Below, piece after piece: positions 5,324 through 43,291 of a stretch of 64,000 nucleotides of DNA. Below the pieces are notes generated by a model. The model was not told where the DNA came from. It ran no database searches and saw only the letters and a program-made list of their open reading frames with translations. Position 1 is the first letter of the stretch. Each line of letters opens with the position of its first letter. Both the position numbers and the translations under genes were made by a program. This DNA is from Anaerohalosphaeraceae bacterium. Its GTDB lineage: Bacteria; Planctomycetota; Phycisphaerae; Sedimentisphaerales; Anaerohalosphaeraceae. Location of the stretch: contig JBNRMN010000067.1 of assembly GCA_050309605.1 (NCBI GenBank), forward strand, positions 128,001-192,000, given 5' to 3'.

Positions 5324-5863
5324 GTGGAGAGTGAACAAACAAGAACGCCTCAGAATATGTCCGATAATGTAGATAAGGCTGCGCGTTTGTTTGCAGAACA
5401 GGAAACGTTTATCCGAGGAACCATCGGCTATTTTGTCAGCGACCGACAGGAACGGGAAGACATTTACCAGGAGTTGTTTGTTTATTTTGTCCGAAAACCG
5501 ATTCCTGAGGACATCTGCCGTCTCAGAACATGGCTGTATCGAGTCATTTTAGACCGCATCCGTGATCGAAAGCGTTCTCAGGCCCGTTACCAGCAGCATC
5601 TTCAGGCGTATGCCCAACAGCAGCTCAAAACGGAAATGCCGCCGCAGCGGGCTGTCGATCCCGACCAGATAGACGCATTGTTTGCTTTGATTCAGGAGCA
5701 TTTATCCCCCCATGAAGCGCGGGCAATTCGCTATAAATTTGTCCACCACTTGACTGTTCAACAGATCGCCCGCTCTATGAAGGTTAAATCCACCACCGTG
5801 TCGAATTATTTGGCGGTCGGGCTGAACAAGCTCCGAGCCTTACTGGACAAGGATGACACATAG
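5324..5863 (+). CDS. ECF RNA polymerase sigma factor
   Basis: Region 2 (EDIYQELFV..RTWLYRVILDRIRDRKR) and region 4 HTH (LTVQQIARSMKVKSTTV). Start could be ATG 5357. Confidence 0.88.
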   Translation: MESEQTRTPQNMSDNVDKAARLFAEQETFIRGTIGYFVSDRQEREDIYQELFVYFVRKPIPEDICRLRTWLYRVILDRIRDRKRSQARYQQHLQAYAQQQLKTEMPPQRAVDPDQIDALFALIQEHLSPHEARAIRYKFVHHLTVQQIARSMKVKSTTVSNYLAVGLNKLRALLDKDDT

Positions 5864-5880
5864 TCTGAAGGAGACACATT

Positions 5881-7134
5881 ATGGAATGCAAACAGGTTTG
5901 TGAATATTATTACAGTTATCTTGAAAAAGCGTATGAGTCCATCCCGCCGGCGCAGTTGAGCCATCTTCAGTCCTGCACGGCCTGTCAGCATGAAGTGGAA
6001 CGGCTGGCTCAGTCTCTTGCGGCCTCGGCCGAAGTGCAGAATCCGGCCTCGTGTCACTATCTGGCGCTGCATTACCGCATGTTGGGGCAATGGGTCGATT
6101 GTGCCGCGGCCAAGCCTTTTTTGCCCTGTCTGGCGATGGCGTCGCTGCCGCTGCACGCCCACACGCCGATCACGGCACATCGGGACGCCTGTTCGGCGTG
6201 CCGAGCCGACCAGGAGGCCATTGCGTCTTTGCATCTGTCCGATGAGCAATTGATGGATGCGTCGCGTTTTCTGGCCGGGCGCGGCGAGCTTGCCGAGGGC
6301 ATTTGCGAACAGGCACGGACCGTGCTGACGGCGATTCGCCGGCGGTCTTTGTCCGTCGTATTGACGCGCGCGTCGTTTTCCGAACCGGATGAGTCGAATG
6401 CGTTGCAGGTCGAGATCGCCGATGTTTCCTCGAAGCGGGCAAACGTTGCCTCTCGGCGCATGCCTCGACTGGTCGCCGCGACCGCGATGGCGGCGATGCT
6501 GATGGTGGCGGTGTTATTGTTTGTCCGATTGCCCTCGGTTGAAGCGCTGGATTTGCAGCGGTTCTATAACGCACTGGCGGATGCACAGACCATTTTGATT
6601 CGGACGGCTGTCCCCGAAGAAGACGCCCCCGTGCAGCGGATTTGGATTTCCCAGGCGCACGGACTGCGGCTTTTTGAGTCGCCGGAAAAAACGGTTTTGT
6701 ATGACGTTAATACCCAACGTCTGCTCCGGCGGGACAGCGCCCATTCCGGCGCGCAGGCAATACACGTTGCCGTCGCGGGCGCACCGGACTATCTGCAGCT
6801 TCCCTGGGGGCTGCTGCCGTTCAAAGACATTACCCAGTTGTCCGAGCATTGTCAGTGGACGCGACTGGATGACTTGTCCGATGAGCGGACCGTCGTTTAT
6901 GAGCTGTTCTGGGCCGAGACGATGTCCGCCGGTCGTGCCATTGAGAAAAAGTGGGTTGGATTTCTGGACAGAGCGACACATCTTCCCCACGCCATTCACC
7001 GATATGAGCGTCTTGCCGGTCAGTCGTCCTGGCGGCTGGTGATGACTACGGAAGTAGCCTATCCGGAGCCGTCGTCGGTGCTGGAGGCGGTGCGCAGCGC
7101 CCGCTTCGAGAGTTTCTACGGCGACCAGATGTAA
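5881..7134 (+). CDS. putative anti-sigma factor: two HxxxCxxC zinc motifs, one TM helix, extracytoplasmic domain
   Basis: HLQSCTAC and HRDACSAC; TM LVAATAMAAMLMVAVLLFV; directly downstream of the ECF sigma; GAAGGAG RBS. Confidence 0.75.
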   Translation: MECKQVCEYYYSYLEKAYESIPPAQLSHLQSCTACQHEVERLAQSLAASAEVQNPASCHYLALHYRMLGQWVDCAAAKPFLPCLAMASLPLHAHTPITAHRDACSACRADQEAIASLHLSDEQLMDASRFLAGRGELAEGICEQARTVLTAIRRRSLSVVLTRASFSEPDESNALQVEIADVSSKRANVASRRMPRLVAATAMAAMLMVAVLLFVRLPSVEALDLQRFYNALADAQTILIRTAVPEEDAPVQRIWISQAHGLRLFESPEKTVLYDVNTQRLLRRDSAHSGAQAIHVAVAGAPDYLQLPWGLLPFKDITQLSEHCQWTRLDDLSDERTVVYELFWAETMSAGRAIEKKWVGFLDRATHLPHAIHRYERLAGQSSWRLVMTTEVAYPEPSSVLEAVRSARFESFYGDQM

Positions 7135-7895
7135 AGCCGATTCGGTCCGCCGTCGTTGGGATCGCCCGCGGCCAGGAGCGACGCTTTCAGCGAGCGGGCG
7201 TACCCATCGGCAAACGCGACATTGATCGAATGTCCGGTGTGTCGGCCTCGAACGGCGTCGTGAAGCTGGGCCGGATCAATACGGCGGCGGCTGTTGTCGG
7301 CAAGACCGGGCAGATAGAACGCGCTGTCCCGTTTGGGATTTTCAAAGTCCGACCGTCCTGTCGGCAAGGCGGCCTTCCAGCTCATCAGTGCATAGCCTGA
7401 ATCGCACAGAAGTACCGTACGGGCCGGCTGTTTCAGTTGGCTTATTTTCAGCGGCGTCCCCTTGAATTCCGTTTCTTCGTCGGCGCTGCCGATTTTGTAA
7501 ATCGCATAATTGACGCCATAGTTGGCGCACAAAACATTGTCTGTCGGCGAGGTGGATGGACAGCTCAGCGAGGCGTCCTCGGTGGGATTGCGGCTGTCGC
7601 TGACCTGGTGAAACCACCACCACCCCTGCCAGTCCAATGCCGCATCCCCCACAAAACCGCCCGGCGGCGCTGAAGAAAAGCCCCCGATATGGCAAAACCC
7701 GAAAGGAAACCGGTCGTTGTTGTCTTGGGTAAATACCTGCGCGGCCATGGTATGTTGTCTGAGGTTGGACTGACAGACTACACGTTGCCCACGCTGTCTG
7801 CTGCTTATCAGCGCAGGCAACACAATTCCCAGCAATAAGGCAATCAGGGCAACGACCGTCACCAGTTCAATCAGCATAAAACCCCATCGGCGCAT
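7116..7895 (-). CDS. prepilin-type N-terminal cleavage/methylation protein with H-X9-DG motif (DUF1559-like)
   Basis: MRRWG|FMLIELVTVVALIALL, CQSNLRQ, RHTGHSINVAFADG; overlaps the convergent anti-sigma gene by 19 nt. Confidence 0.88.
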   Translation of the reverse strand: MRRWGFMLIELVTVVALIALLLGIVLPALISSRQRGQRVVCQSNLRQHTMAAQVFTQDNNDRFPFGFCHIGGFSSAPPGGFVGDAALDWQGWWWFHQVSDSRNPTEDASLSCPSTSPTDNVLCANYGVNYAIYKIGSADEETEFKGTPLKISQLKQPARTVLLCDSGYALMSWKAALPTGRSDFENPKRDSAFYLPGLADNSRRRIDPAQLHDAVRGRHTGHSINVAFADGYARSLKASLLAAGDPNDGGPNRLYIWSP

Positions 7896-7901
7896 ACATA
7901 C

Positions 7902-7930
7902 ATTATATGCGCTGAGGCCGTCCGATACAA
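7902..7930 (-). promoter_or_regulatory. sigma70 promoter positioned for a leaderless mRNA
   Basis: TTGTAT-17 nt-TATAAT-6 nt-ATG(7895) on the minus strand; no SD. Confidence 0.6.
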
Positions 7931-7931
7931 C

Positions 7932-7965
7932 CAAAAAAACAAAAACAGGACAAAGAATTTCCTGT
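7932..7965 (-). terminator. putative intrinsic terminator after the C39-domain gene
   Basis: AACAGGA...TCCTGTT stem followed by a T-rich tract on the minus strand. Confidence 0.5.
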
Positions 7966-7997
7966 TCTTGCCGTTGCCCCCGTGTACAACAGTCGCC

Positions 7998-9665
7998 TTA
8001 CATACACGCCCGAATATACCGGCTGTACCATCGACCGGTGATTTCACACCAGTTCGGGTAGTAGGGGTGGTTGATGCAATGGGTATAATCGTAGCCGATC
8101 ATCTTTTGTCCGGTGCAGGTCGTGCCGTAATAGTCTTCCCGACAGCCGTAGCGCAGCCAGAACCGATAGTACGCCCCGCCGCACAAACCGCCGATCGGTT
8201 CGGAACAAAGCCATTGTTCTTCGTTCTGGATCAATTCAGTGCAGGAATAGCCGATGTTGCCGCCGAGAATTTGCTGCTGACGGGCGTCATCAAGCAGTTC
8301 CACCTGTCCGCTGAGCACAATCGGCTGATCGGCCACCAGCAGCGCCACGCCGTCTTTCCAGTCCGCCAGCAATTCGCGTATCGGGCGTTTCCAGTAAAAT
8401 TTACGGTCGGTCAAGTCCACCGTCCAGACCGCATCTTTTTCGATGCGATCCAGCACCACGTAGTGCCGGGCGGTCGGGTAATGCAGAATGATCCCGTAGT
8501 TCTTGAATTCGGCCAGCGATTTGACATCCGTCTTGACGGCCGCACAATACAGCCCTGCGGCCTCCAGCGCTTGGCGGATGGCGTACAGACTGGTCATTTC
8601 AGGTTGTCCGGCCGCGGCCGGGGCGGGCGGATTTGGTGTTTCCGGCAGGCTCAGACTGATGTTCTTTGCGAAGCGTTTGGCAATATGCGCCACCGCCAGG
8701 ACCGCACAATTGGCCTGCTCCTTTTGAACCGATAACGTCATCACTTTTTGTTCGAGCATTCGAGTGATGTCCGCCGCTTCGGAAGCGTGGTACAGAAACG
8801 ACTTCATCTGCCCGTACGGCTGAAGCTCAACGACCGTGCCTTCGGCAAAGACCGGCTGATACGGTTCGGTCGGACGGTTCGCATCGACCGACAGAAACCG
8901 CCAGTCTTCATACGACACCAGCGTCGGGGTGTCGCCCTGCAAATGAAACCGTTCGACGACGATGATAAAGGGAATCCAGTTCTGTCCGATTTGTCGATAG
9001 TCTCGATAATGCTGTCGGATGGTTACCGCTTGGTTTTTCATGGTGTAGGAAAGAGGCAGGAAGGCTTTTTCCGGGTCGAGAACCATCGTCGTTTCAACAG
9101 GCGACCGGTCGGGGTTGTCGGTCAGCGTCAGCCGCATCAGCCGCCGTCCGTCTTCAACAAATGCCGCCGCCGAAGGATTCCTCTCGGCCAGTTTTTCGCG
9201 AGTGAACAGTCCCAGCCCCCACGGAATGACCCCTGCGGTAAACGGGCCGAACAGATTCATCGGCATTTCCTGTTGGTCCATCACCACGACGGCATAATCG
9301 GCGGATTTGTAATAGCGGGTGTAGGCGTTGCCGTCATACGCAAAAATCCGGTGTTTGTTACTTTGATGGTCCGGCCGCTCCACGTCCGGCGAGGCTGCAT
9401 CCGCCGGCGGATCCGCAAGGACAATCTCCCAATAAAACCGGTTTCCGTCAAACCGAAAAAGTTCCTGCGATTCATACGCCATTTCTTCGCCAATGCGATA
9501 TTCGAGATATTTGGCGCGGATCGTCCCAGCCTCAAGCCAGGTATGTTTCGGCGCAGCGGTCAACTCCTCAAGCAAGGCGTTGACCTGACTTTCATCAAGC
9601 GTTTGATCTGCCGCTGCCGCGGCGAGAACCGACCCCATTAATACAGCATAAACAAGCGTCTTCAT
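7998..9665 (-). CDS. secreted protein: unknown N-terminal domain, C39-type cysteine peptidase, double-glycine motif, 8-Cys C-terminal peptide
   Basis: Signal peptide MKTLVYAVLMGSVLAAAAA; QKEQANC (Cys320), IILHYPTARHYVVL (His401), VDL (Asp417); ELLDDARQQQILGG then an 86-aa tail; AGGAG RBS 7 nt upstream. Confidence 0.8.
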   Translation of the reverse strand: MKTLVYAVLMGSVLAAAAADQTLDESQVNALLEELTAAPKHTWLEAGTIRAKYLEYRIGEEMAYESQELFRFDGNRFYWEIVLADPPADAASPDVERPDHQSNKHRIFAYDGNAYTRYYKSADYAVVVMDQQEMPMNLFGPFTAGVIPWGLGLFTREKLAERNPSAAAFVEDGRRLMRLTLTDNPDRSPVETTMVLDPEKAFLPLSYTMKNQAVTIRQHYRDYRQIGQNWIPFIIVVERFHLQGDTPTLVSYEDWRFLSVDANRPTEPYQPVFAEGTVVELQPYGQMKSFLYHASEAADITRMLEQKVMTLSVQKEQANCAVLAVAHIAKRFAKNISLSLPETPNPPAPAAAGQPEMTSLYAIRQALEAAGLYCAAVKTDVKSLAEFKNYGIILHYPTARHYVVLDRIEKDAVWTVDLTDRKFYWKRPIRELLADWKDGVALLVADQPIVLSGQVELLDDARQQQILGGNIGYSCTELIQNEEQWLCSEPIGGLCGGAYYRFWLRYGCREDYYGTTCTGQKMIGYDYTHCINHPYYPNWCEITGRWYSRYIRACM

Positions 9666-9681
9666 TGTCATTCTCCTGTTT

Positions 9682-11040
9682 TTATTCAACTGACTCCATT
9701 TCAGCGGATTGTTTAACGGCTTCAACAAATTCCGTCCATTCGTCTTCATCGACGGTCTCCTGCAATTCGGGCGATTCATCCCAAATGGTCTCGAGTGCTT
9801 CGACCATTTCCTCGGTGGTCTTTTCCGTGGTCGTGTCGTCCTCGACGACGATCGGGTCGCCGGCGGACATCATCTGCATCTGACCTTCCGGTTCATACTG
9901 GTGCAGCACCATCGGCCCAAGAACCACCCGTTCCTCGTCCAGATGGGTGTACAGGCTCAGGGTGACGGTCCCCGGCATCATGGGCGTATAGACAAAGGAG
10001 GCAATCGGTCCGTCTTCGATCGGTCCGCTGAAGCTGGCGGCCAGGAACTGAATGCCTTCCTGCTGGATCTCGCCCGGCCCCCAGTAGTCAAAGAACGTGG
10101 AATGCGGCCAGGCCAGCAGCTCGGCGGTTCCGTCGCCCGGCGGGTCGTTGGGGTCATACGGCGTGTTGTCGATCCAGCCGAGATTCGGATCGGAAATCAG
10201 CACCTCAAGCCAGAATATCGCGACGTCGTTATCAATCGTTGTTTTGTCCAGATACAGCCGAACACTTTGACCGACGGGGATGGAGATTTCATCACGCCCG
10301 TTCGGGTCTGTAATGGAATAAAACAGCGTCGGCTCCGGCGCCGGCCCCGGCGTCACCTCAGGCGGCCATGTGGGCGTTCCCCACAGCCAGAAATCCGCAA
10401 ACATCAGTACATCCGACAGCCCCACTACGCCGTCGCGATCCAGATCAGCGCCGCCGCAGGTGTTCGGGTCGGCGCACTCGGTGAGCCAATACGATGAAAA
10501 AATCGCAAAATCCGCATAATTGACCACGCCGTCGTCGTTCAAATCCCGCGAGGCCGTATTGTCCAGTACGACCGTCTTATTGGGATCCGGCACCGTAAAC
10601 GACGAACTGTGATTGTAATAATGTATCAGGCACTCTCCCTCGTCCAGCGGTGTGTAATCCAGCACGAACCAATCGCCGGGCGTGCGGCTTAACTCATCGG
10701 TGTACAGATCAAAACCGCTCATCCACGAATCCCGCCAGTGCAGGAGAAAGGCCCGCCGGCCGGCTGCTTCCAGACCGCTGGCCTGTCCGGCCGGCGCATT
10801 GGGGTCGTCGCTGCGCCAACTGAGCATACCCGCAGGGCGATGTTCATTATGAATGAACAGGCCGCCGCTCCAGAGGTCGTTGGCGTCCGAATGCACCAGC
10901 AGGCTGACCTGTGAGCCGAGCATCACCTCGTGATGCCACAGCGGGCGCAGATGAACCGGATCGCAGACCGTTACGTTGACCGCTGCCCGGACCGACAGTA
11001 CGCCGACCAGGAGGATGCAAAACACGAACAGGTTTTTCAT
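9682..11040 (-). CDS. secreted protein with dockerin-like paired Ca-binding repeats and an acidic C-terminal helix
   Basis: Signal peptide; DLNDDGVVNYADFAIFSSYWL and DLDRDGVVGLSDVLMFADFWL; GAGGAG RBS. Confidence 0.8.
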   Translation of the reverse strand: MKNLFVFCILLVGVLSVRAAVNVTVCDPVHLRPLWHHEVMLGSQVSLLVHSDANDLWSGGLFIHNEHRPAGMLSWRSDDPNAPAGQASGLEAAGRRAFLLHWRDSWMSGFDLYTDELSRTPGDWFVLDYTPLDEGECLIHYYNHSSSFTVPDPNKTVVLDNTASRDLNDDGVVNYADFAIFSSYWLTECADPNTCGGADLDRDGVVGLSDVLMFADFWLWGTPTWPPEVTPGPAPEPTLFYSITDPNGRDEISIPVGQSVRLYLDKTTIDNDVAIFWLEVLISDPNLGWIDNTPYDPNDPPGDGTAELLAWPHSTFFDYWGPGEIQQEGIQFLAASFSGPIEDGPIASFVYTPMMPGTVTLSLYTHLDEERVVLGPMVLHQYEPEGQMQMMSAGDPIVVEDDTTTEKTTEEMVEALETIWDESPELQETVDEDEWTEFVEAVKQSAEMESVE

Positions 11041-11076
11041 AAAATTCAATCTCCTCACAAAAATAAATGATGTGTA

Positions 11077-11094
11077 CATCGATGGGGACGCCGC
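11077..11094 (-). promoter_or_regulatory. copy 2 of GCGGCGTCnnCATCnATG motif
   Basis: GCGGCGTCCCCATCGATG on the minus strand, preceded by AACATAGCGTTTTCGA (compare AACTTCGCGTTTTCG before copy 1); 36 nt before the dockerin-gene ATG. Confidence 0.6.
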
Positions 11095-11220
11095 TCGAAA
11101 ACGCTATGTTGGTGGTGTTTTGAGATTTTTTTGGAAAAAGTCCGAAAAAAAGGAAATTTTTGAAAATTTACCACATTTTTCACATTTTTTTCAAACTCAT
11201 CACACATATTACATCGCTGA

Positions 11221-11389: not shown

Positions 11390-11433
11390 AAAATTAAAAG
11401 GCGTTGTCATGGAAAACAACGCCTTAAGTTTTT
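11390..11433. terminator. intrinsic terminator, probably bidirectional
   Basis: AAGGCGTTGT/ACAACGCCTT stem with A/T tracts on both sides, just after the ETF-QO stop. Confidence 0.65.
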
Positions 11434-35468: not shown

Positions 35469-36806
35469 TTGGGTATCGGACCTCGAAAATACCAATTTGA
35501 TGTGTTGTCCGGTCGGTTTCTGGCGGCTCGGCTTCCGCTGCTGGCGGCGTCGGTGCTGCTGGTGTGTTTGAGTCTGGTGACGATTTATGCCATCGGACAT
35601 CCGCAGGTCGAGCCGGACAATCCGGCCGAGGCCGCCGAGCAGACGGGCCGGGACGAAGCATCGGTTCGCAGCGCGGCCGCGACCGGCCGCTATGCGGGCT
35701 ACTGGCTGCGGCAGGCGGGGTTCGCGGTGGTGGGGCTGGGGTGTTTGGTCGGCGTTAACCTCTTTGATTACAGGCGGTTAGGGCCATACAGCTACACGCT
35801 TTACGCGGTCATTCTGGCGCTGTTGATGGTGCTGATGATCGACAAATACATTGACCTGCCGTTTGTGCCGGTGGTCAACAATGCCCGGCGGTGGATTCGT
35901 GTAACGATTATGGGGCGCGATTTGCTCAACATCCAGCCGTCGGAGTTCTGCAAGGTTGGCTTTATTATTGCGTTGGCGTGGTATCTTCGGTTTCGCGAGA
36001 ATTATCGGACGTTCAAGGGACTGGTCGGGCCGTTCGCGATTACGCTGCTGGCGATTGTGCTGATTTTGCGGCAGCCGGACTTGGGGACGGTGATGCTGCT
36101 GATGCCGATCTTGTTTGCGATGCTGTTCGTGGCCGGGGCGCGGGTCAAGCATCTGTTGTTCATTATAATGATGGCGGCGCTGGCGGCGCCGGTCTTGTGG
36201 AATTTTATGCACAGTTACCAGCGAATGCGGATTGCGTCGGTGGCACTGCAGAATGAACGGATTTTTGAAGCGGTGCGGTCGCGTCCTCGGCTGGCCAATT
36301 ATCTGGTGGGCGACGCCGAGCGGCTGCGGACGTGGCGGCGGGACGAGGGCTACCACCTGCTGCACTCCAAACAGGCCATTGCGTCCGGCGGTCTGTGGGG
36401 GTATGGGCTGGGCAAAGGGCCGTACATACGCTACGATTACCTGCCCGAACGGCACAACGACTTTATTTTCGCGGCCATTGCCCATCAATTGGGCCTGGGC
36501 GGGTGTGTGGTGGTCTTGCTGCTGTATGCGGTGATTATTGCCACGGCGATGGAGATTGCATGGCTGAATACCGATGCGTTTGGTCGGCTTGTGGCCGCCG
36601 GCATCGGGGCGATGTTTGCGGTGGAGGTGTTGGTCAATATCAATATGACGCTGGGGCTGATGCCGATTACAGGATTGACGCTGCCGCTGTTGAGCTACGG
36701 CGGCTCGAGTATGGTCGTGCATATGATCGCTATTGGGCTGCTCAATAATATCGGACGCGACCGGCCGTTCTCCGTGGCCAAAAAGCCGTTTGAGTTTCAA
36801 AATTAG
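35469..36806 (+). CDS. SEDS family peptidoglycan glycosyltransferase (RodA/FtsW)
   Basis: ARRWI, IQPSEFCK, QPDLGT, YLPERHNDFIF, PITGLTLPLLSYGGSS; start uncertain. Confidence 0.92.
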   Translation: MGIGPRKYQFDVLSGRFLAARLPLLAASVLLVCLSLVTIYAIGHPQVEPDNPAEAAEQTGRDEASVRSAAATGRYAGYWLRQAGFAVVGLGCLVGVNLFDYRRLGPYSYTLYAVILALLMVLMIDKYIDLPFVPVVNNARRWIRVTIMGRDLLNIQPSEFCKVGFIIALAWYLRFRENYRTFKGLVGPFAITLLAIVLILRQPDLGTVMLLMPILFAMLFVAGARVKHLLFIIMMAALAAPVLWNFMHSYQRMRIASVALQNERIFEAVRSRPRLANYLVGDAERLRTWRRDEGYHLLHSKQAIASGGLWGYGLGKGPYIRYDYLPERHNDFIFAAIAHQLGLGGCVVVLLLYAVIIATAMEIAWLNTDAFGRLVAAGIGAMFAVEVLVNINMTLGLMPITGLTLPLLSYGGSSMVVHMIAIGLLNNIGRDRPFSVAKKPFEFQN

Positions 36807-36819
36807 AGGTCAGAAGACA

Positions 36820-37347
36820 CCAGCGCGGCACACCAGCGCGCACAACAGCGCGGCGGCGCAAGGGCGCGGTACAATAGCGCGGCGGCGCGAGCCGCCCGAT
36901 AAGGGGATGCGGGTGTATGGAGCGTTTTGCAAGTCGCCACATAATCCGGCCGCTTGCGCGGCTCGGCTGTTGTACGATGACGCGGCGCAACAGCGCGGCG
37001 GCGCAAGCCGCCCGATACGGGGATGCGGATAAATGGGACGTTTTCCAAGACGCCACAGGATCCGGCCGCTTGCGCGGCTCGGCTATTGTACGATGGCGCG
37101 GCGCAACAGCGCGGCACAATAGCGCGGCGGCGAAAGCCGCCCGATAGGGGGATGCGGATGGATGGGGCGTTTTCCAAGTCGCCACATAATCCGGCCGCTT
37201 GCGCGGCTCGGCTATTGTACGATGACGCGGCGCAACATCGCGGCACAACAGCGCGGCGGCGCGAGCCGCCCGATACGGGGATGCGGATAGATGGAGCGTT
37301 TTGCAAGTCGCCACATAATCCGGCCGCTTGCGCGGCTCGGCTGTTGT
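36820..37347. repeat. tandem array of four REP-doublet (BIME/REPIN-like) units, 117-129 bp period
   Basis: Each unit has a GCGGC-GMRA-GCCGC hairpin, a conserved ~45-nt spacer, and an inverted GCCGC-TTGC-GCGGC hairpin; units begin near 36871, 36988, 37116 and 37245. Confidence 0.88.
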
Positions 37348-37497
37348 GGGTATCGTCATCCGGCCGGTGGTGGGTAGCCGGATGCTGATTTTCAGGCTGA
37401 TAATGGGGGTTGTGAATAAAAATACGACGTAGCAGTACTGAAAAAGGCTGTTTTTTCGGGGTTTTTCAAAATTTTTTGTTCCTTCGGCAATTTTTTC

Positions 37498-37526
37498 TTG
37501 CAATGCATCGCGTTTTTTAGTATTAT
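37498..37526 (+). promoter_or_regulatory. sigma70 promoter
   Basis: TTGCAA-17 nt-TATTAT preceded by A/T tracts. Confidence 0.6.
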
Positions 37527-37712
37527 CAGCAGAGTACCAAGGAAGCTGAATTTCGGATGGGAGAATCCGGGGCGGTTTCGTGGCACACAGCGCGGCGAGC
37601 CGACAGGTTTGCCCGAAGCGAAAAAATGCGAGCGAGATGCCTTCGAGGCGCGGGGCCTTGAGGGTGATGTAAAATAGAGTAACCGAAGAAAAAGAGAAAG
37701 GGATGGTGTCAA

Positions 37713-38441
37713 ATGAGAAAAGTTCTGTTAAGTTTGCTCGTTATGGCTCTGGCAGTCCCGGCGTTCGCGGCGGTTGAGTTTTCCGCGGTGGACAACGGGG
37801 ATGGAACCGTGTCGGTGGTGATTGACACGGCTGATGTCGTGCGCGGTCTGGCCCTGAAGGTGACCTGCAGCGAAGGCGCTGAGCTGGTCGATCTGGAGCC
37901 GGAAGTCAACGCGGCGTTCAACACGTTCATCGACTTTGCTTTTACGACCGAAGCGGGTGCTCCGGGCACGTATGAAGTCGGCGACGGGCATCCGTTTGCG
38001 CTGGCTGATGAGGCCGGTGTGGCCGCGGCGGGCGCAACCGAGTTCAGCATCAGCATGGGCGTGCTGGATGAGGGCGGCAATCAGGAAGGCTTTGTCTCCG
38101 AAATCGGCGGCGAAGTGCTGATTACCTTCAAGACCGGCGCGGGAATGGTGTGCTTTGAGCTGGATACCCTTCGCGGCGGCGTGGTCGGCGATGAGGCCCT
38201 GACCACCAACCTCGACGATGAAGGCATCTGTGTCGCGGTCACCGATGGCCCGGAATGCTGGAACTACCCGAGGTTTGGCGAAGGCGATGGAAATGGCGAT
38301 GGTGTGATCACTTTTGCGGATTTACAGATATTGATTAATGCGTGGGCACCCAATCCTTACAATCCGTGTGCGGACTTCAACAAGGATGGTGTGGTTACAT
38401 TTGCGGACCTGCAGATTCTCATTAATAACTGGCCGCAATAG
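37713..38441 (+). CDS. secreted acidic protein with C-terminal dockerin-like domain
   Basis: Signal peptide ..VPAFA; DGNGDGVITFADLQILINAW and DFNKDGVVTFADLQILINNW. Confidence 0.85.
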   Translation: MRKVLLSLLVMALAVPAFAAVEFSAVDNGDGTVSVVIDTADVVRGLALKVTCSEGAELVDLEPEVNAAFNTFIDFAFTTEAGAPGTYEVGDGHPFALADEAGVAAAGATEFSISMGVLDEGGNQEGFVSEIGGEVLITFKTGAGMVCFELDTLRGGVVGDEALTTNLDDEGICVAVTDGPECWNYPRFGEGDGNGDGVITFADLQILINAWAPNPYNPCADFNKDGVVTFADLQILINNWPQ

Positions 38442-38588
38442 TATTGAGAAATAGAGTTTTTCATGTTTTAATGATTCACTCTAAATCAGTATAAGATAAA
38501 ATTAACACACACTTTACACCAAGTAAGTTAACGTTAACGTGAGTTTTGTTCGAACAAAAACAACAACAAGTTTTTCGAAAGGGGAACG

Positions 38589-39086
38589 ATGATGAAGAAG
38601 TTAATGGTTTTGAGTTTGGTTTTGGCAGTTGGTTCGATGGCGACAGCAGGTTTGTCTCTGACACCGTCGGAGCCACTCTTGTCTGGGACTTTGTCGATAG
38701 TCTTTGAGAAAACTGAAGCCGGTAACTTGGAAGGTTACGACTTGATCCTTCGAGTAGTCAGTGGCTCAGTCGTTTTCGGCGATGCATCATTAAGTGAAAA
38801 AGGTAATTGGATGGTTGCTCCTGCTTTTGTAGCCGGCGATCAACTGCGCATTTCAGCAGGGGCCTTCCCGGGTTTTGGTTTTTTAGGTCTGACCGAAGCT
38901 GATTCAATTTTGACCGTCGATTATGCTGGTGAAGAAGGTTCTGTAATTGAACTTTGGTCAGTAGCTACGACCATCGGTGGCGTTGACTATAACCAAACCA
39001 CTTTTGATTCTGTCACGTTGGTTCCCGAGCCGATGACGATGGGTCTGCTGGGTGTTGGCGCTCTGTTCCTGCGTCGGCGCAAATAA
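38589..39086 (+). CDS. PEP-CTERM sorting domain protein
   Basis: Signal peptide; VPEPMTMGLLGVGALFLRRRK. Confidence 0.9.
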   Translation: MMKKLMVLSLVLAVGSMATAGLSLTPSEPLLSGTLSIVFEKTEAGNLEGYDLILRVVSGSVVFGDASLSEKGNWMVAPAFVAGDQLRISAGAFPGFGFLGLTEADSILTVDYAGEEGSVIELWSVATTIGGVDYNQTTFDSVTLVPEPMTMGLLGVGALFLRRRK

Positions 39087-39130
39087 GCGAGACCGAACCG
39101 CTTAACCAAACTCGTAAAGACAATGTGTGT

Positions 39131-39167
39131 AAAGAGGCGCAGCCGCTGAGGCGGGCGCCTCTTTTTA
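39131..39167 (+). terminator. intrinsic terminator
   Basis: AAAGAGGCGC..GCGCCTCTTT stem followed by TTTTT. Confidence 0.75.
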
Positions 39168-39174
39168 TGTTTAA

Positions 39175-39500
39175 GCTCCTCCCCTGTCAAGGGGAGGTGG
39201 CCGCGCAGCGGCCGGAGGGGTATATTACAACCTCCGGTGCAGGCGGCTCATTAATTGTTTACCTTTTGGATGCCGCCCTATGCTGTATGTCACCATAGAG
39301 GCGCTCAGGTCGCTTCCCAGCGTTGCCTTATCCTCCCTATGGCAAAGGCATTATAGCCTGCCCTGCTGGAGTCTTAAAGCGTTAAATCCAAAATACTTAT
39401 AGTTTTCAAAGAGCATTTTTTATCAACTTTATTGGATAAGAGCCTACTTTTTTACACCCCCTCCCCCCTTCGGGGTACTCCCCCTTTGCAGGGGGAGAGC
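39175..39500. repeat. pair of inverted REP-like palindromes (CTCCCC..GGGGAG..GGGG family) enclosing a non-coding insert
   Basis: 39175-39221 and 39456-39500 are related double hairpins in inverted orientation. Confidence 0.7.
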
Positions 39501-39610
39501 ATTTAGCCGCGAGGCTGTGCCTCTTTTTTATTGACCAATGACGATTTAGAGTTTAGAATTATATTCGTGCCAATCCGTGCAATCTGTGGTTGAAAAGAGG
39601 GTAACGAGAC

Positions 39611-39895
39611 ATGCTCTAACAATCGAACAAATTAAACAGGCAGCCCAAAAAGCTGCATTGCATTATCCTATCCGCAAAGTTTTCCTGTTCGGGTCGTATG
39701 CGGCCGGATATGCGGATGAGACCAGTGACGTGGATATGCTGGTGGAATTTGCGGCCCATCCAATATCCCTTTTTGAATTGGCGGGCTTTAATCAGGAATT
39801 GCGGGACGAGTTGAATACATCGGTAGATACCGTGAAACTTCCGCTTAAGCAGGACAGCATTATTGATATAAATCAGGCGATTTGCTTGTATGAAC
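39611..39895 (+). pseudogene. MNT nucleotidyltransferase antitoxin with start out of frame
   Basis: LFGSYA.G.ADETSDVDMLVEF; the SD-preceded ATG at 39611 is out of frame (ATG CTC TAA, apparent 2-nt duplication); the natural stop appears lost. Confidence 0.7.
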
Positions 39896-39970
39896 GTATG
39901 GGAAACCGCAATAAAAAGCATTCCCGAATTGGGCAGGCAATTATGCGACATATTACGAGACGACCAATAA
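39890..39970 (+). pseudogene. remnant of a HepT/DUF86 HEPN toxin
   Basis: MN-VWETAIKSIPELGRQLCDILRDDQ*: start overlaps the MNT end and is fused to a DUF86-like C-terminal helix; RxxxxH core absent. Confidence 0.65.
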
Positions 39971-40124
39971 ACCTCTCGACTATCGAAATCCGAAACAAAT
40001 TCAAATGACAAAAAACGCAATGCTCCAAACCGGATCAAAACCTGATTAAAATTCTTCGTGCTCTTTGTGTCCTTCGTGGTATAATTCAGAAGTCAGAAGA
40101 CAGAGTTCAGAAAGGAACATTTTC

Positions 40125-40328
40125 ATGAAACTTCGTATTGTGTTGGAACCCAGCGACGAGGGCGGTTATACAGCTATCGTTCCGGTTCTTCCCGGCTGTA
40201 TCAGTCAGGGCGACACCCGTCAGCAAGCGCTGGAGAATATTCAGGAAGCCATCGCGCTTTATCTGGAACCGGTGGACGATGACTATAGCTTAAACGCCGA
40301 ATCGGAAGTTTTAGAGATCGCTGTATGA
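40125..40328 (+). CDS. hicB: HicB family antitoxin (short form)
   Basis: DEGGYTAIVPVLPGCISQGDTRQQALENIQEAIALYL; AAAGGAA RBS. Confidence 0.88.
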   Translation: MKLRIVLEPSDEGGYTAIVPVLPGCISQGDTRQQALENIQEAIALYLEPVDDDYSLNAESEVLEIAV

Positions 40329-40551
40329 GCAAGGTCCCCAGCCTGGATTATCGACAGGTTATTAATGCACTGAAGCGCGACGGGTGGGTTGTAGTGCGGC
40401 AAAAGGGCGTCATATTCGACTGCACAAGCATACGGCCGACAATATGCTGAAAATTACCATACCTGCCCACAAACCAATCAAGCGATCTACTTTGTCGCAT
40501 ATTCTAAAGCATGCACGAATACGTGTCGATAGATTGAATAAATTGCTGTAA
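40325..40551 (+). pseudogene. hicA: HicA mRNA interferase with a 1-nt deletion
   Basis: MSKVPSLDYRQVINALKRDGWVVVRQKG/(S)HIRLHK..ITIPAHKPIKRSTLSHILK; 227 nt long, with the frameshift at the G-S-H motif. Confidence 0.8.
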
Positions 40552-40725
40552 AATGATTGGTTTGTGTCAGGGGTTTAGATTTACCACGGAGAGCACGAAG
40601 GTCATGAAGTAAAGAGATAGAGATAAAAAAGAATGAATTTGAATTCTTCGTGCTCTTTGTGTCCTTTGTGGTTCATATAAATCCGTGTCCATCTGTGTAA
40701 TCCGCGGTTGATAGAGGAACAGACA

Positions 40726-41247
40726 ATGAACAATTCAACATTAAAAATTGCGTTTTTCCTTTTGCCTTTTGCCCTTTGCCTTTTGTCCGGCTGTCAGTCT
40801 TCGGTGCACAATATGCAGACGGCTTTTCCGAAAGAACTGGCGGGCGTTTGGCAGGTGGATTCAGGCCGTAAAGCGGTGGAACTGGACGAGGCGGGCAATC
40901 TTGTTTCATTTACCTTAGCGTCAGGTCTGAAGATTAATATTGCGGAGGGCGGATTGCATAAAAAAGGCCCGACTCAGGGTTCTATGCTTATGATAATCTT
41001 GGGGGAGGCGCCAGTTGAATTTGATCACAACACACGAGCTTTAAAGATTGCTATTCATTTTGAGGATTATCGGATTGAACTGCCCGGAGTTGATTTTTCC
41101 GGTACGATGACGGAAATTCTTGAAGGAACAGTCAACAAACACAATACGGAATGGCTGGCCACTTCAACCGTTACCGGTACGGTTGAAAATCTACCGCAGA
41201 TGGACGATACGACAGATACTCTTTATCTGTTTCGAAAGGTCAACTAA
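40726..41247 (+). CDS. hypothetical lipoprotein
   Basis: Lipobox LSGC; ELAGVWQ lipocalin-like start; GAGGA RBS. Confidence 0.75.
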   Translation: MNNSTLKIAFFLLPFALCLLSGCQSSVHNMQTAFPKELAGVWQVDSGRKAVELDEAGNLVSFTLASGLKINIAEGGLHKKGPTQGSMLMIILGEAPVEFDHNTRALKIAIHFEDYRIELPGVDFSGTMTEILEGTVNKHNTEWLATSTVTGTVENLPQMDDTTDTLYLFRKVN

Positions 41248-41253
41248 TCTGCG

Positions 41254-41793
41254 TTAATAGGCATAGAAGTTTACACCTTCCGAGTCGGTTTCCGGATAAT
41301 CAAGGCGCACTTCTTTAGTTTTGGGTTTGTATATCCAGCCGTACTCTCCCGATGCCTCGGCGGGAAAAGATTCCGAATCGCCAAGAATCCGAAAATCATC
41401 TTTTTTATTGAAAGGGTTTTTCGGCAATTCGTTAAAATAAGGACCATAGATATATGAACCACTTTTTGTTTTTTGCAAAATGGTGTCGCCGTTAATGTTG
41501 GTACAATAGAGAAGTTGCGCATTTACAATAAATGTATGATCCGAGAATACACCGTTCAAGTAGCCTGGCGGCATTCCGTTGTGTTCGGCGGTGTATCTTT
41601 CGATGGCTTCTCTGAGGAGTTTTAGGTTGGCTTTGGCCTGGGTTTCTTTTGCTTTTTGTTGGTGGTTTTGGAATTCGGGGATGACGACGGCGGCCAGGAT
41701 GCCGAGGATGGAGACGACGATCATCAATTCCACGAGCGTGAACGCTCGTGGAATTAGTTTTGAGTTTTGAGTTTTGAGTTTTGAGTTTTTCAA
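41254..41793 (-). CDS. type II secretion/type IV pilin-like protein (GspG-like)
   Basis: RA|FTLVELMIVVSILGILAAVVIP, YGPYFNELPKNPF; start uncertain. Confidence 0.85.
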   Translation of the reverse strand: MKNSKLKTQNSKLIPRAFTLVELMIVVSILGILAAVVIPEFQNHQQKAKETQAKANLKLLREAIERYTAEHNGMPPGYLNGVFSDHTFIVNAQLLYCTNINGDTILQKTKSGSYIYGPYFNELPKNPFNKKDDFRILGDSESFPAEASGEYGWIYKPKTKEVRLDYPETDSEGVNFYAY

Positions 41794-42025
41794 GTTTTTT
41801 AGTTCGCAGTTTTTGGTTTATTATATCTTTTTTTATGTCGTCATATCTATACACGGTGTACTTATCGGCCTGTTTTTTGCACGGATTCACTGATTTTCAC
41901 TGATTTTTAACCGCGGATTACGGGGCTTGCGGGGATTTTTTATTTTTCTATTTAATCCTTATGATTTATAGTTTGGTTTACTCTGTGTAATCCGTGAAAT
42001 CTGTGGTTTCAATGAAGAGGTTATT

Positions 42026-43291
42026 ATGAATGTTTTATTGGTTGGCAGCGGGGGTCGCGAGCACGCGCTGGCGTGGAAGTTGGCTCAATCAAAGAAGTTA
42101 GATCATTTGTACATTGCGCCGGGCAATCCGGGGACAGCGGCATTCGGGACAAATGTCGATATTGCAGACACAGAAATTGATCGTCTGGTTGAATTCGCCC
42201 AGGGCAAGCAGGTTGATCTGGCGGTGATTGGGCCGGAAGATCCGCTGGCGGCCGGGGCGGTGGACGCCTTCGAGGCCGCGGGCATCAAGGCGTTCGGGCC
42301 GAGCAAGGCCGCGGCCAAGCTGGAGGCCGACAAGGCATTTGCCAAGCAGATTATGCGGGCCAACAGTATTCCCACGGCTGAAAGCCGGACGTTTACCGAT
42401 TTCAAGGACGCCAAGGCGTATATCGCCAGTCGGGATGAGGCGGTGGTGGTCAAGGCTGCCGGGCTGGCCAAGGGCAAGGGGGTGTTCGTGTGTGATGAGC
42501 CGTCCGAGGCGATTTTGGCCGCCGAGCGGATTATGGTCGATGGCCTCTTCGGCGACGCGGGGCGGGTGGTTGTGGTTGAGGATAAGCTGCTGGGACAGGA
42601 GGCGTCGATTCTGGCATTTGTGGATGGGCGGAGTATCTATGTAATGGAAAGTGCCCAGGATCACAAGCCCATCGGCGAGGGGGATACGGGCGATAATACC
42701 GGCGGGATGGGGGCGTACAGTCCGGCGCCGATTGTGACGGAGAAATTGCTGGCTCAGATTGTGCGCGAGGTGCTGGTGCCGACGGTTGATGGGATGAATC
42801 GCAACGAGACGCCGTACAAGGGGGTGCTGTATGCGGGGATGATGCTGACCCAGGGCGGGCCGCGTGTGCTGGAGTTTAATGTGCGGTTCGGCGATCCGGA
42901 GACGCAGCCGATTTTGATGCGGATGAAGGGGGATTTGCTGGAGGTGATGCTGGCGGTGTGCGAGGGCAGGCTGGATCAGGTGAGTCTGGATTGGGACAAG
43001 CGTCCGGCGGTGTGTGTGGTGATGGCCTCGGGCGGATATCCGGGAGCGTATGAGAAGGGCAAAGAGATTTTGGGGCTGGAGGAAGCGGGGAAAATGGAAG
43101 ATGTGATGGTGTTTCATGCCGGTACGGCCACACGCGACGGGCAGATTGTCACCAGCGGCGGGCGTGTGCTGGGGGTAACGGCACTGGGCGAAACGATAGC
43201 CCGGGCCAAGTCACGGGCCTATGAGGCGGTGGACAAGATTTCGTTTGAGGGGGCATACTATCGTCGGGATATTGCGGATAAGGCGATTTGA
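42026..43291 (+). CDS. purD: phosphoribosylamine--glycine ligase
   Basis: GSGGREHA, APGNPG, GLAKGKGV, QDHK, NTGGMGAYSP, EFNVRFGDPE. Confidence 0.98.
   Translation: MNVLLVGSGGREHALAWKLAQSKKLDHLYIAPGNPGTAAFGTNVDIADTEIDRLVEFAQGKQVDLAVIGPEDPLAAGAVDAFEAAGIKAFGPSKAAAKLEADKAFAKQIMRANSIPTAESRTFTDFKDAKAYIASRDEAVVVKAAGLAKGKGVFVCDEPSEAILAAERIMVDGLFGDAGRVVVVEDKLLGQEASILAFVDGRSIYVMESAQDHKPIGEGDTGDNTGGMGAYSPAPIVTEKLLAQIVREVLVPTVDGMNRNETPYKGVLYAGMMLTQGGPRVLEFNVRFGDPETQPILMRMKGDLLEVMLAVCEGRLDQVSLDWDKRPAVCVVMASGGYPGAYEKGKEILGLEEAGKMEDVMVFHAGTATRDGQIVTSGGRVLGVTALGETIARAKSRAYEAVDKISFEGAYYRRDIADKAI

Follow-up and report, generated by a model that had tools for sequence, protein, structure and literature searches.

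A candidate self-processing precursor from Anaerohalosphaeraceae: C39 peptidase, double-glycine-type leader and 8-Cys core in one polypeptide with a signal peptide

In a stretch of 64,000 nucleotides from an Anaerohalosphaeraceae bacterium (Planctomycetota, Phycisphaerae, Sedimentisphaerales; GenBank assembly GCA_050309605.1, contig JBNRMN010000067.1, positions 128,001 to 192,000), referred to here as the window, a gene was identified whose 555-residue product combines a signal peptide, a domain of the LolA/RseB fold, a C39 cysteine peptidase, a double-glycine (GG) type leader and a C-terminal core with eight cysteines. A C39 peptidase and a GG leader are the textbook pair for the maturation of bacteriocins, pheromones and ribosomally made peptides with post-translational modifications (RiPPs), for which the enzyme is normally located in the cytoplasm on an ATP-binding cassette (ABC) exporter and the substrate is a separate small precursor. 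The reading favoured here, with a probability of roughly 0.58, is that the protein is both precursor and protease: it would be exported by Sec, its own C39 domain would cut after Gly469, either in cis or between two copies, and the 86-residue core would be released. The architecture of the protein, its conservation, the folds of its domains, the gene cassette in which it is encoded and the existence of free-standing cores were established.

The frame on the minus strand is free of internal stops and remains open upstream of the ATG at 9665 as far as 9779 (Table 1). Met at 9665 is likely the start of the gene, since an AGGAG sequence precedes it by 7 nt, the stop codon of the upstream gene lies 16 nt before it, and the N-termini of relatives align at this position. 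By eye, the N-terminus was read as a Sec-type signal peptide with a basic n-region, a hydrophobic core and an Ala-rich c-region, and these features are kept in the family consensus, which bears out the signal peptide proposed in a first-pass annotation of this DNA. The translation likewise placed Gln314, Cys320, His401, Asp417, Gly468 and Gly469 where that annotation had put them, and verified the 86-aa tail rich in Tyr and Trp, with a mass of 10.26 kDa and a content of 8 Cys, 12 Tyr and 4 Trp. Outside the tail, just two cysteines are present, C320 and C374. No transmembrane or ABC ATPase domain was found in the 555 residues by Pfam and NCBIfam. For the whole protein, an AlphaFold2 model was obtained with a mean predicted local distance difference test (pLDDT) score of 87.4 and a predicted template modelling score (pTM) of 0.85.

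Relatives of the protein were collected in two sets. A word-indexed protein search yielded 45 proteins, nearly all of 543-623 aa and all containing PF03412, and the tail was missing solely from one 332-aa fragment. From the alignment of this set (n = 44), the identical sequence P0002 and the 332-aa fragment P0011 were left out. In a scan of species-representative genomes, 119 loci encoding a relative were found, 80 of which were kept; an open reading frame (ORF) matching the family profile was present in all 80 fetched loci, and 72 of these ORFs have a length of at least 545 aa. By record titles, all loci belong to Planctomycetota, mostly to Phycisphaerae, Sedimentisphaerales and Anaerohalosphaeraceae. 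Conservation was counted on 113 non-redundant sequences, obtained by merging the protein and locus sets and removing duplicates; these are the relatives to which the counts out of 113 refer.

For the distribution of the gene, two sets of 401 genomes each were searched, one drawn evenly from the class and the other from the phylum. In the class sample, the tail was found in 39 genomes with a single match in each, in open frames of 550-629 aa and in fused form throughout. The matches were distributed over four families of the window's own order (23/28, 2/4, 10/20 and 3/6 genomes); none was found in the 5 genomes of a fifth family of this order, and no family outside the order matched. In the phylum sample, 7 of the 401 genomes contained the tail, all of them from the window's order and only in fused form, again in open frames within 550-629 aa. 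In the genomes sampled, the fusion gene is limited to one order of Phycisphaerae, with one copy per genome. Some genomes may carry two cassettes, though each sampled genome gave one match: two loci (L004 and L080), which by their record names (JACNGQ01...) belong to one metagenome-assembled genome (MAG), hold two different fusion copies that are 41% and 31% identical to the query. Another record in the family list, Anaerohalosphaeraceae bacterium U12dextr (L047), is without a MAG label, and a culture may exist.

The assignment of the peptidase to the C39 family, as made in the first pass, was confirmed. Pfam Peptidase_C39 (PF03412) matched residues 312-447 with an E-value of 4.1e-11 and 43.3 bits, above the cut-off of 22. 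In a profile search of the PDB, the family profile matched PCAT1 and ComA, and their catalytic residues align with Cys320, His401 and Asp417. Each of the three residues is invariant in 113/113 relatives, and Asn319, directly before the Cys, is present in 112/113. A C39-like fold was also identified by Foldseek, with matches to 6mpz, the structure of LahT150 with a leader (TMt 0.71, root-mean-square deviation 3.2 over 133 columns), to 5xe9 (TMt 0.71) and to 7n87 (TMt 0.65), and with PCAT1 and ComA among the matches. TIGR01193 and NF045998 gave partial matches only, confined to the peptidase part of homologues, and no short stand-alone relatives of the C39 domain were found at E ≤0.001 among 490 candidates. 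The Gln six residues before the Cys had been listed as a further active-site feature; it is true of the window's protein (Q314), but in gap-free counts it is present at -6 in only 2 of the 113 relatives; 61 relatives have Gln at -2, and 51 have it at -4.

The peptidase domain is followed by the leader VELLDDARQQQILGG, in which Ile at -4, Leu at -12 and Val at -15 fit the consensus of C39 substrates and Gln at -7 does not, exactly as had been read from the letters. This leader is internal (residues 448-469 of 555) and not N-terminal on a small separate precursor. In a review of RiPP leader proteases, C39 substrates are described, in the part available, as having a GG, GA or GS site with hydrophobic residues at -4, -7 and -12 (PMC10885120). 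The consensus of the 113 relatives, F-x2-I-x4-L-x2-I-x-G-[G/A/S], agrees with the canonical pattern. At -1, G was counted in 56, A in 37 and S in 14 sequences, and at -2 G in 107; in aligned columns, G, A or S is present at -1 in 107/113, so that the motif proved to be kept in homologues. Neither a GG motif without conservation nor catalytic residues out of line with C39, two of the three refuting outcomes named in the first pass, was observed. Position -4 is I in 99 sequences, -7 is L in 84, Q in 20 and M in 5, -8 is Q in 46 and E in 31, -12 is I in 79 and L in 28, and -15 is F in 61, followed by L, V and I. Counted without gaps, G-[G/A/S] together with a hydrophobic -4 occurs in 107/113 relatives. 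Hydrophobic residues at all of -4, -7, -12 and -15 are present in 71/113, and in 20/113 only -7 is non-hydrophobic, like in the window's protein.

When 70 tails were compared to NCBIfam, weak matches were obtained (best E 0.0026), and the four families matching most tails were TIGR04149 (11 tails), TIGR01847 (4), plantaricin C (2) and mersacidin (2), all of which we take to be GG-leader precursor families. For TIGR01847, a curated leader model, the best tail E-value was 0.0076, and the homologue P0024 reached 15.1 bits compared to a cut-off of 15.7; the window's tail gave no match to it. A loose regular expression for the leader, written post hoc, occurred 257 times in the 4.49 million residues of the six-frame ORFs of the genome, or about 6e-5 per residue. 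Since the expression is this rare and the motif is conserved across the 113 relatives, the leader motif is more than chance. In the full-length model, leader residues 451-470 have pLDDT values of 90-93 and residues 467-468 are in a strand state, whereas in a model of the tail only the same residues have values of 72-80 and 467-468 do not form a strand. This contrast implies that, in the model, the leader is packed onto the rest of the protein. When the C39 domain (296-448) and the leader (449-482) were modelled as a complex, without control runs, scores of 0.27 and 0.25 were obtained compared to a mark of 0.32.

For the core, the conservation of cysteines, which the first pass had proposed as a check, was found in full: all 8 Cys are invariant in the 113 relatives and in 12 stand-alone or differently fused homologues. 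The length of the core ranges from 79 to 98 residues among relatives. Mean pairwise identity is 0.43 for the LolA-like domain, 0.45 for the C39 domain, 0.35 for the leader and 0.42 for the core. Whether the cargo varies while the motif stays had been posed as a check in the first pass; with an identity close to that of the enzyme, the core is not hypervariable, and the alignment does not resemble that of a polymorphic toxin or of a diversifying bacteriocin. The first-pass reading of the fusion was therefore supported in its architecture and conservation, and not in a cargo more variable than the enzyme or in Gln314 as a feature of the family. In the tail-only model, the core is a small beta-rich domain; the model has a pLDDT of 89, with values above 90 across the core. 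No Foldseek match of the core fold to the PDB was found at E ≤0.001, and VIA-align over 48,161 chains gave a best Z of 3.7 with none of at least 5, which is not proof of a new fold.

Cores outside the fusion were identified with a profile of the 70 tails, which was scored against 1.84 billion representative proteins. It matched 151 proteins; among the 146 beyond the first search, 75 have at least 540 aa, 14 have 300-539 aa and the other 57 fall below that length. With few exceptions among 150 rows, the match reaches the C-terminus or ends a few residues short of it. Short matches, for example those starting MDW..., were considered as split genes and turned out to be mostly fragments from an internal Met of the C39 domain. 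Three of the proteins (P0143, P0162 and P0174) consist of an N-terminal signal peptide with the core a few residues later; by the -3/-1 rule, applied by eye, about 2-9 residues would be left before the first Cys, compared to 5 after the predicted GG cut in the window's protein. In four others (P0159, P0161, P0177 and P0185), a signal peptide is followed by a GG leader and then by the core, as in ...VPDKEAAQVVGG/QGRTC, and P0179 has a segment like this class without the GG. In P0125, P0169, P0186 and P0190, the core comes after a signal peptide and an N-terminal domain of about 130-190 aa that is unrelated. The proteins of the first type imply that cells can produce the core as a free mini-protein for secretion, and those of the second type that the leader is accessible only after Sec export and is recognised beyond the membrane. 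Together, these stand-alone cores suggest a free core as the product, with the leader being read on the extracytoplasmic side. From the same set of sequences, the 8-Cys core appears as a mobile module. A metagenome scan for stand-alone cores, based on a closer alignment, found one locus, which has a fused form of 596 aa.

The genome from which the window derives (3.4 Mb, 99.7% complete) contains a single copy of the tail. No C39-ABC transporter was identified in it, in line with the earlier proposal that a dedicated ABC transporter is dispensed with; just two C39 matches were found, in open frames of 623 and 278 aa, neither of them fused to an ABC domain. The second C39 protein, of 274 aa and encoded outside the window (G000:C67:60704-61528, plus strand; L085:7704-8528), has a hydrophobic N-terminal half followed by a C39 domain with a Pfam E-value of 2.6e-10 and Gln at -6 from the Cys. 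It lacks an ABC domain, and in the roughly 5 kb around its gene a Cys-rich gene was not seen. A leader-only hidden Markov model, which is short and weak, was run over 45,967 six-frame ORFs and gave the fusion itself as the best match with 13.0 bits and nothing else convincing. With a single tail copy and no other convincing leader, the protein's own tail is the only visible substrate of this C39 domain.

Among known systems, the C39 domains of peptidase-containing ABC transporters and ABC transporter maturation and secretion proteins (PCAT/AMS; ComA, PCAT1, LahT150 and CvaB) share the fold and the Cys/His/Asp triad with the fusion, and their substrates have the same signature as its leader, with G-[G/A/S] at -2/-1 and hydrophobic residues at -4, -7, -12 and -15. 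In contrast to these, the fusion is without transmembrane and ATPase domains, has a signal peptide and a LolA-fold domain in front and is predicted to be non-cytoplasmic; its substrate is located in the same chain, C-terminal to the enzyme, Gln at -6 is not kept and the identity is about 18%. The GG leader peptides of TIGR01847 (bacteriocin_sig) and TIGR04149 (GG-type radical S-adenosylmethionine RiPP precursors) have the same motif and spacing, but the leader of the fusion is internal and its core is a large protein of 79-98 aa, presumably with disulfides. A closer precedent for the location is FapD of the Pseudomonas Fap amyloid system, which is described in the available part of the report as a periplasmic C39 protein exported by Sec and active without an ABC partner (PMC5557850). 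In that report, FapD stands alone as an enzyme, without an identified substrate and without a canonical leader (PMC5557850). The FapD model NF058616 found nothing on the window's protein and gave 13.7 and 14.3 bits on two homologues compared to a cut-off of 330, and the operon of FapD differs from the cassette described here. For cleavage within one chain, the precedent is StbD-CT, a CdiA-type C39 peptidase toxin, which according to the portion of the preprint available cuts its own chain in cis after Gly-Gly, dependent on the catalytic Cys (bioRxiv 10.64898/2026.05.07.723447). As described there, its site is located N-terminal to the protease in a linker without a long amphipathic leader, whereas the site of the fusion is C-terminal; the StbD-CT protease is a toxin delivered to a reducing cytosol, with no Cys-rich cargo, no LolA domain and another secretion route. 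In a literature search, which covered few subscription journals, no description was found of a C39 domain joined in one chain to its leader and cargo, of a LolA-C39 fusion or of such a cassette, in agreement with the first-pass view that the architecture is not a recognised described system.

From these data, a scheme can be proposed in which we infer that the protein is exported and cleaved, where it is cut, that disulfides form and what the product does. The 555-aa fusion would be exported by Sec, and the 8-Cys core would fold in the periplasm or outside the cell, presumably being oxidised to four disulfides. The C39 domain with Cys320, His401 and Asp417 would then recognise the adjoining amphipathic leader of the double-glycine type and cut after Gly468-Gly469, in cis or between two copies. 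The predicted product is a Tyr/Trp-rich beta-protein of 86 aa and about 10 kDa, starting from Asn470, and a peptidase-ABC exporter would not be involved. The N-terminal domain of the LolA/RseB fold would remain with the protease, where it may serve as a chaperone for the product or as a link to the anti-sigma factor encoded nearby. Self-cleavage is favoured because the triad is invariant, the leader keeps the positions read by C39 and the tail is strictly coupled to the enzyme, and further because no other substrate or exporter was found, free-standing cores exist and FapD and StbD-CT provide precedents.

Several points weigh against this scheme. Self-cleavage is deduced from sequence and models. 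A thiol protease would have to stay reduced at a place where eight neighbouring Cys get oxidised, and for StbD-CT, in the text available, processing occurred only under reducing conditions (bioRxiv 10.64898/2026.05.07.723447). The oxyanion-hole Gln of ComA and PCAT1 sits at -6, a spacing kept in just 2/113 relatives, and since the Gln spacing is non-canonical and Asn is present at -1 in 112/113, the catalytic machinery differs from the canon. G-[G/A/S] is absent from 6/113 relatives, which have variants such as A-S, G-L and G-N; the window's own leader carries the Gln at -7, and its tail matches no GG-leader model. The high pLDDT of the leader shows just that it packs against something, which need not be the catalytic groove. 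Core and enzyme evolve at the same rate (mean pairwise identity 0.42 compared to 0.43-0.45), which also fits a permanent structural domain. Finally, the stand-alone cores come from a protein library without genomic context or names.

The N-terminal domain (residues 22-295), for which the first pass had noted about 290 aa of unknown function, gave no Pfam or NCBIfam match, and its fold is recognisable as LolA/LolB/RseB-like. By Foldseek, LolA3 (9tp6) was the best match with E 2e-8, and NE2245 (3buu), LolB (9tpm) and LolA were also found; for these four, the probability was 1.00, E ranged from 2e-8 to 1e-5 and TMt from 0.39 to 0.53. Matches to RseB and MucB were obtained with E-values of 6.5e-5 to 2e-4, and the superfamily matches overall span 2e-8 to 7e-4. 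Besides the common fold, a sigma/anti-sigma pair is located nearby in the genome, as for RseB and MucB. Differences to the superfamily are that the domain of the fusion is joined to a protease and has neither a lipoprotein signal nor a family match at the sequence level. The idea that the periplasmic domain of the anti-sigma-like protein is a paralogue of this LolA-like domain, raised by a shared PWGL-like motif, was rejected, with a profile-profile probability of 0.4%.

The fusion gene belongs to a conserved cassette of five genes, not noted in the first pass, all of which are present in the window (Table 1). Neighbours were clustered over the 80 loci, with counts taken only from loci with enough flank. 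A dockerin-like gene is located directly upstream on the same strand in 55/65 loci, and a DUF1559 pseudopilin directly downstream in 63/71. The anti-sigma-like gene is present in 55/57 loci and occurs together with the gene for an extracytoplasmic function (ECF) sigma factor, convergent to the fusion, in 52/57. The pseudopilin product matched the NCBIfam model for the GspG N-terminus with E 3e-6 and Pfam DUF1559 weakly. The N-terminus of the anti-sigma-like protein is rich in Cys, and the protein also has a single hydrophobic span and a periplasmic C-domain; its putative role as an anti-sigma factor is suggested by this architecture and by its position. The dockerin-like protein has a conserved N-terminal domain besides its dockerin-like module, and in the subfamily of the window about 230 aa are added at the C-terminus, which most relatives do not have. 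Beyond the cassette, the window contains a GH95 glycosidase and an electron transfer flavoprotein (ETF)-ubiquinone oxidoreductase, which are not in the recurrent neighbour clusters of the 80 loci. A strong two-way terminator-like hairpin with 10-11 pairs and T runs on both strands was identified at 11398-11425; it is located between the ETF-ubiquinone oxidoreductase gene and the first operon gene of the cassette and therefore marks the edge of the cassette. A search by dyad counts and k-mer enrichment for an ECF-type promoter shared by the operon and the sigma gene yielded just AT-rich words, a ribosome-binding site and sigma-70-like words, and in a promoter scan of the window sites were no more frequent than in shuffles.

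Table 1. Positions in the window of the fusion gene, of its parts and of the other genes of the cassette.
Feature	Position	Strand	Remarks
Whole fusion gene	7998..9665	-	555 aa + stop; holds the five parts from signal peptide to 8-Cys core; from translation and homologues
Shine-Dalgarno-like AGGAG	9673..9677	-	read from sequence; putative ribosome-binding site
Sec-type signal peptide	9603..9665	-	residues 1-21, MKTLVYAVLMGSVLAAAAA/DQ; judged by eye
LolA/LolB/RseB-fold domain	8781..9602	-	about residues 22-295; AlphaFold2 model and Foldseek
C39 cysteine peptidase domain	8325..8780	-	about residues 296-447; Pfam match 312-447
Cys320 codon	8706..8708	-	predicted nucleophile; 113/113; aligns with catalytic Cys of PCAT1 and ComA
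His401 codon	8463..8465	-	113/113; aligns with catalytic His
Asp417 codon	8415..8417	-	113/113; aligns with catalytic Asp
Double-glycine-type leader	8259..8324	-	residues 448-469; G468-G469 at 8259-8264; predicted cut after G469
8-Cys core	8001..8258	-	residues 470-555, 86 aa; predicted released product
Secreted dockerin-like protein gene	9682..11079	-	upstream in operon; Pfam Dockerin_1 E 2.3e-6
DUF1559 pseudopilin gene	7116..7934	-	downstream in operon; probable start ATG 7895; prepilin-type, H-x9-DG C-terminus
Anti-sigma-like membrane protein gene	5881..7134	+	convergent; weak RsrA-type match E 0.071; family consensus
ECF-type sigma factor gene	5324..5863	+	Pfam Sigma70_r2 and Sigma70_r4_2

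The neighbourhood of the sigma/anti-sigma pair leads to a second reading, which is considered unlikely, in which the protein would be a protease gated by a pseudosubstrate. The leader, cleaved or not, would plug the C39 groove, with the 8-Cys core as a cap, and the real substrate would be another protein, such as the periplasmic domain of the anti-sigma or the dockerin-like neighbour; if the anti-sigma is the target, the fusion would be a site-1 protease that binds it through the RseB-like domain. The presence of the pair in 52/57 loci is consistent with this, as are the fold of the N-terminal domain, which is that of the anti-sigma binders RseB and MucB, the core conserved as strongly as the enzyme and the leader packed with confidence in the full model. 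Of the candidate targets, the dockerin-like neighbour would offer a site, since a W-x-G-G is conserved at about residues 69-74, with the G in 59/65, G/A/S at the next position in 52/59 and a hydrophobic -4 in 53/59. A hydrophobic -7, however, is present in only 3/59 of these, and the -7/-12 helix signature is absent, while the anti-sigma and pseudopilin families have no conserved leader-like G-[G/A/S] site at all. A comparison of the profiles of the anti-sigma family and the fusion family gave nothing, with a probability of 0.4%, which also speaks against this reading. Moreover, the stand-alone cores with a signal peptide argue that the core can work alone, which would not be needed for a mere cap.

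If neither a neighbour nor the tail is cut, the protein would be an uncleaved, multidomain secreted protein. In this case, which is rather improbable, the leader would be a linker docked on an idle or differently used C39 domain, and the 8-Cys domain would be a permanent binding module, for instance for a surface or a glycan. The lost canonical spacing of the oxyanion Gln and the uniform evolutionary rate across the domains would be explained in this way, and the core is also found C-terminal to other, unrelated N-domains (P0125, P0169, P0186 and P0190), like a binding module. A protein of the C39 fold with a non-peptidase activity has been reported, as far as the available part of the paper goes (PMC13642728). 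Yet the Cys, His and Asp invariant in 113/113 sequences would be hard to explain without catalysis, a linker would not be expected to retain exactly the positions read by C39, including G/A/S at -1, and the stand-alone precursors hold the same leader between signal peptide and core. An ordinary bacteriocin or RiPP precursor that uses a cytoplasmic peptidase-ABC exporter encoded elsewhere, with the N-terminus as a membrane anchor or a mis-called start, would agree with the usual cytoplasmic location of C39 domains and GG leaders as described in the parts available of PMC5557850 and PMC10885120, but is hardly credible, given that both C39 domains of the genome (open frames 623 and 278 aa) are without ABC fusion, that the N-terminal hydrophobic segment with its Ala-rich end is conserved, that eight invariant Cys and a LolA fold fit an extracytoplasmic protein, and that the start at 9665 has a putative ribosome-binding site.

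On top of self-cleavage, the whole cassette could be read as an exporter-free circuit for peptide signalling, although the odds of this are regarded as low. The fusion would cut itself in the periplasm, the core would leave the cell, aided by the pseudopilin, and would be sensed through the anti-sigma factor with an RseB-like gate, and the ECF sigma factor would respond to the cell's own product or to that of its neighbours. If this were true, diderm bacteria would have a self-processing autoinducer or surface-signalling system of a new class.

In sequencing runs, DNA nearly identical to 7100-11100 of the window (at least half of the sampled words) was identified 13 times, and 2 of the 13 runs may be the source of the DNA itself. 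The labels of these runs are poultry litter, soil, gut, biogas fermenter, sludge and unspecified metagenome, and two DNA runs compared over 7100-11100 had just a few single-base differences. One contig from an RNA library spans 7100-7374 only, and a second run, probably of DNA, covers 9123-9470. Elsewhere in the window, positions 38000-42000 have a GC content of 0.43-0.48 compared to about 0.56 in the remainder and no ORF of at least 300 aa; Rfam gave no match on the low-GC stretch 36500-42500. From about 34 kb to 64000, the GC skew is steadily positive (0.09-0.34) and nearly all long ORFs are on the plus strand.

For the biology of these bacteria, the finding means that enzyme, leader and product of a maturation system are present in one polypeptide, predicted to be exported by Sec and conserved in anaerobic Phycisphaerae of one order. 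Should the self-cut be real, processing of GG leaders would be movable to the periplasm and uncoupled from transport, and a compact module of one gene would suffice for the release of a disulfide-rich protein. It would also provide a concrete substrate for an extracytoplasmic C39 peptidase, which is still lacking for FapD, and would identify a family of 86-aa proteins with four disulfides and without a detectable solved relative. The tight linkage to an ECF sigma/anti-sigma pair and to a DUF1559 pseudopilin also offers a first clue to the function of a planctomycete protein family that has expanded hugely and is still unexplained.

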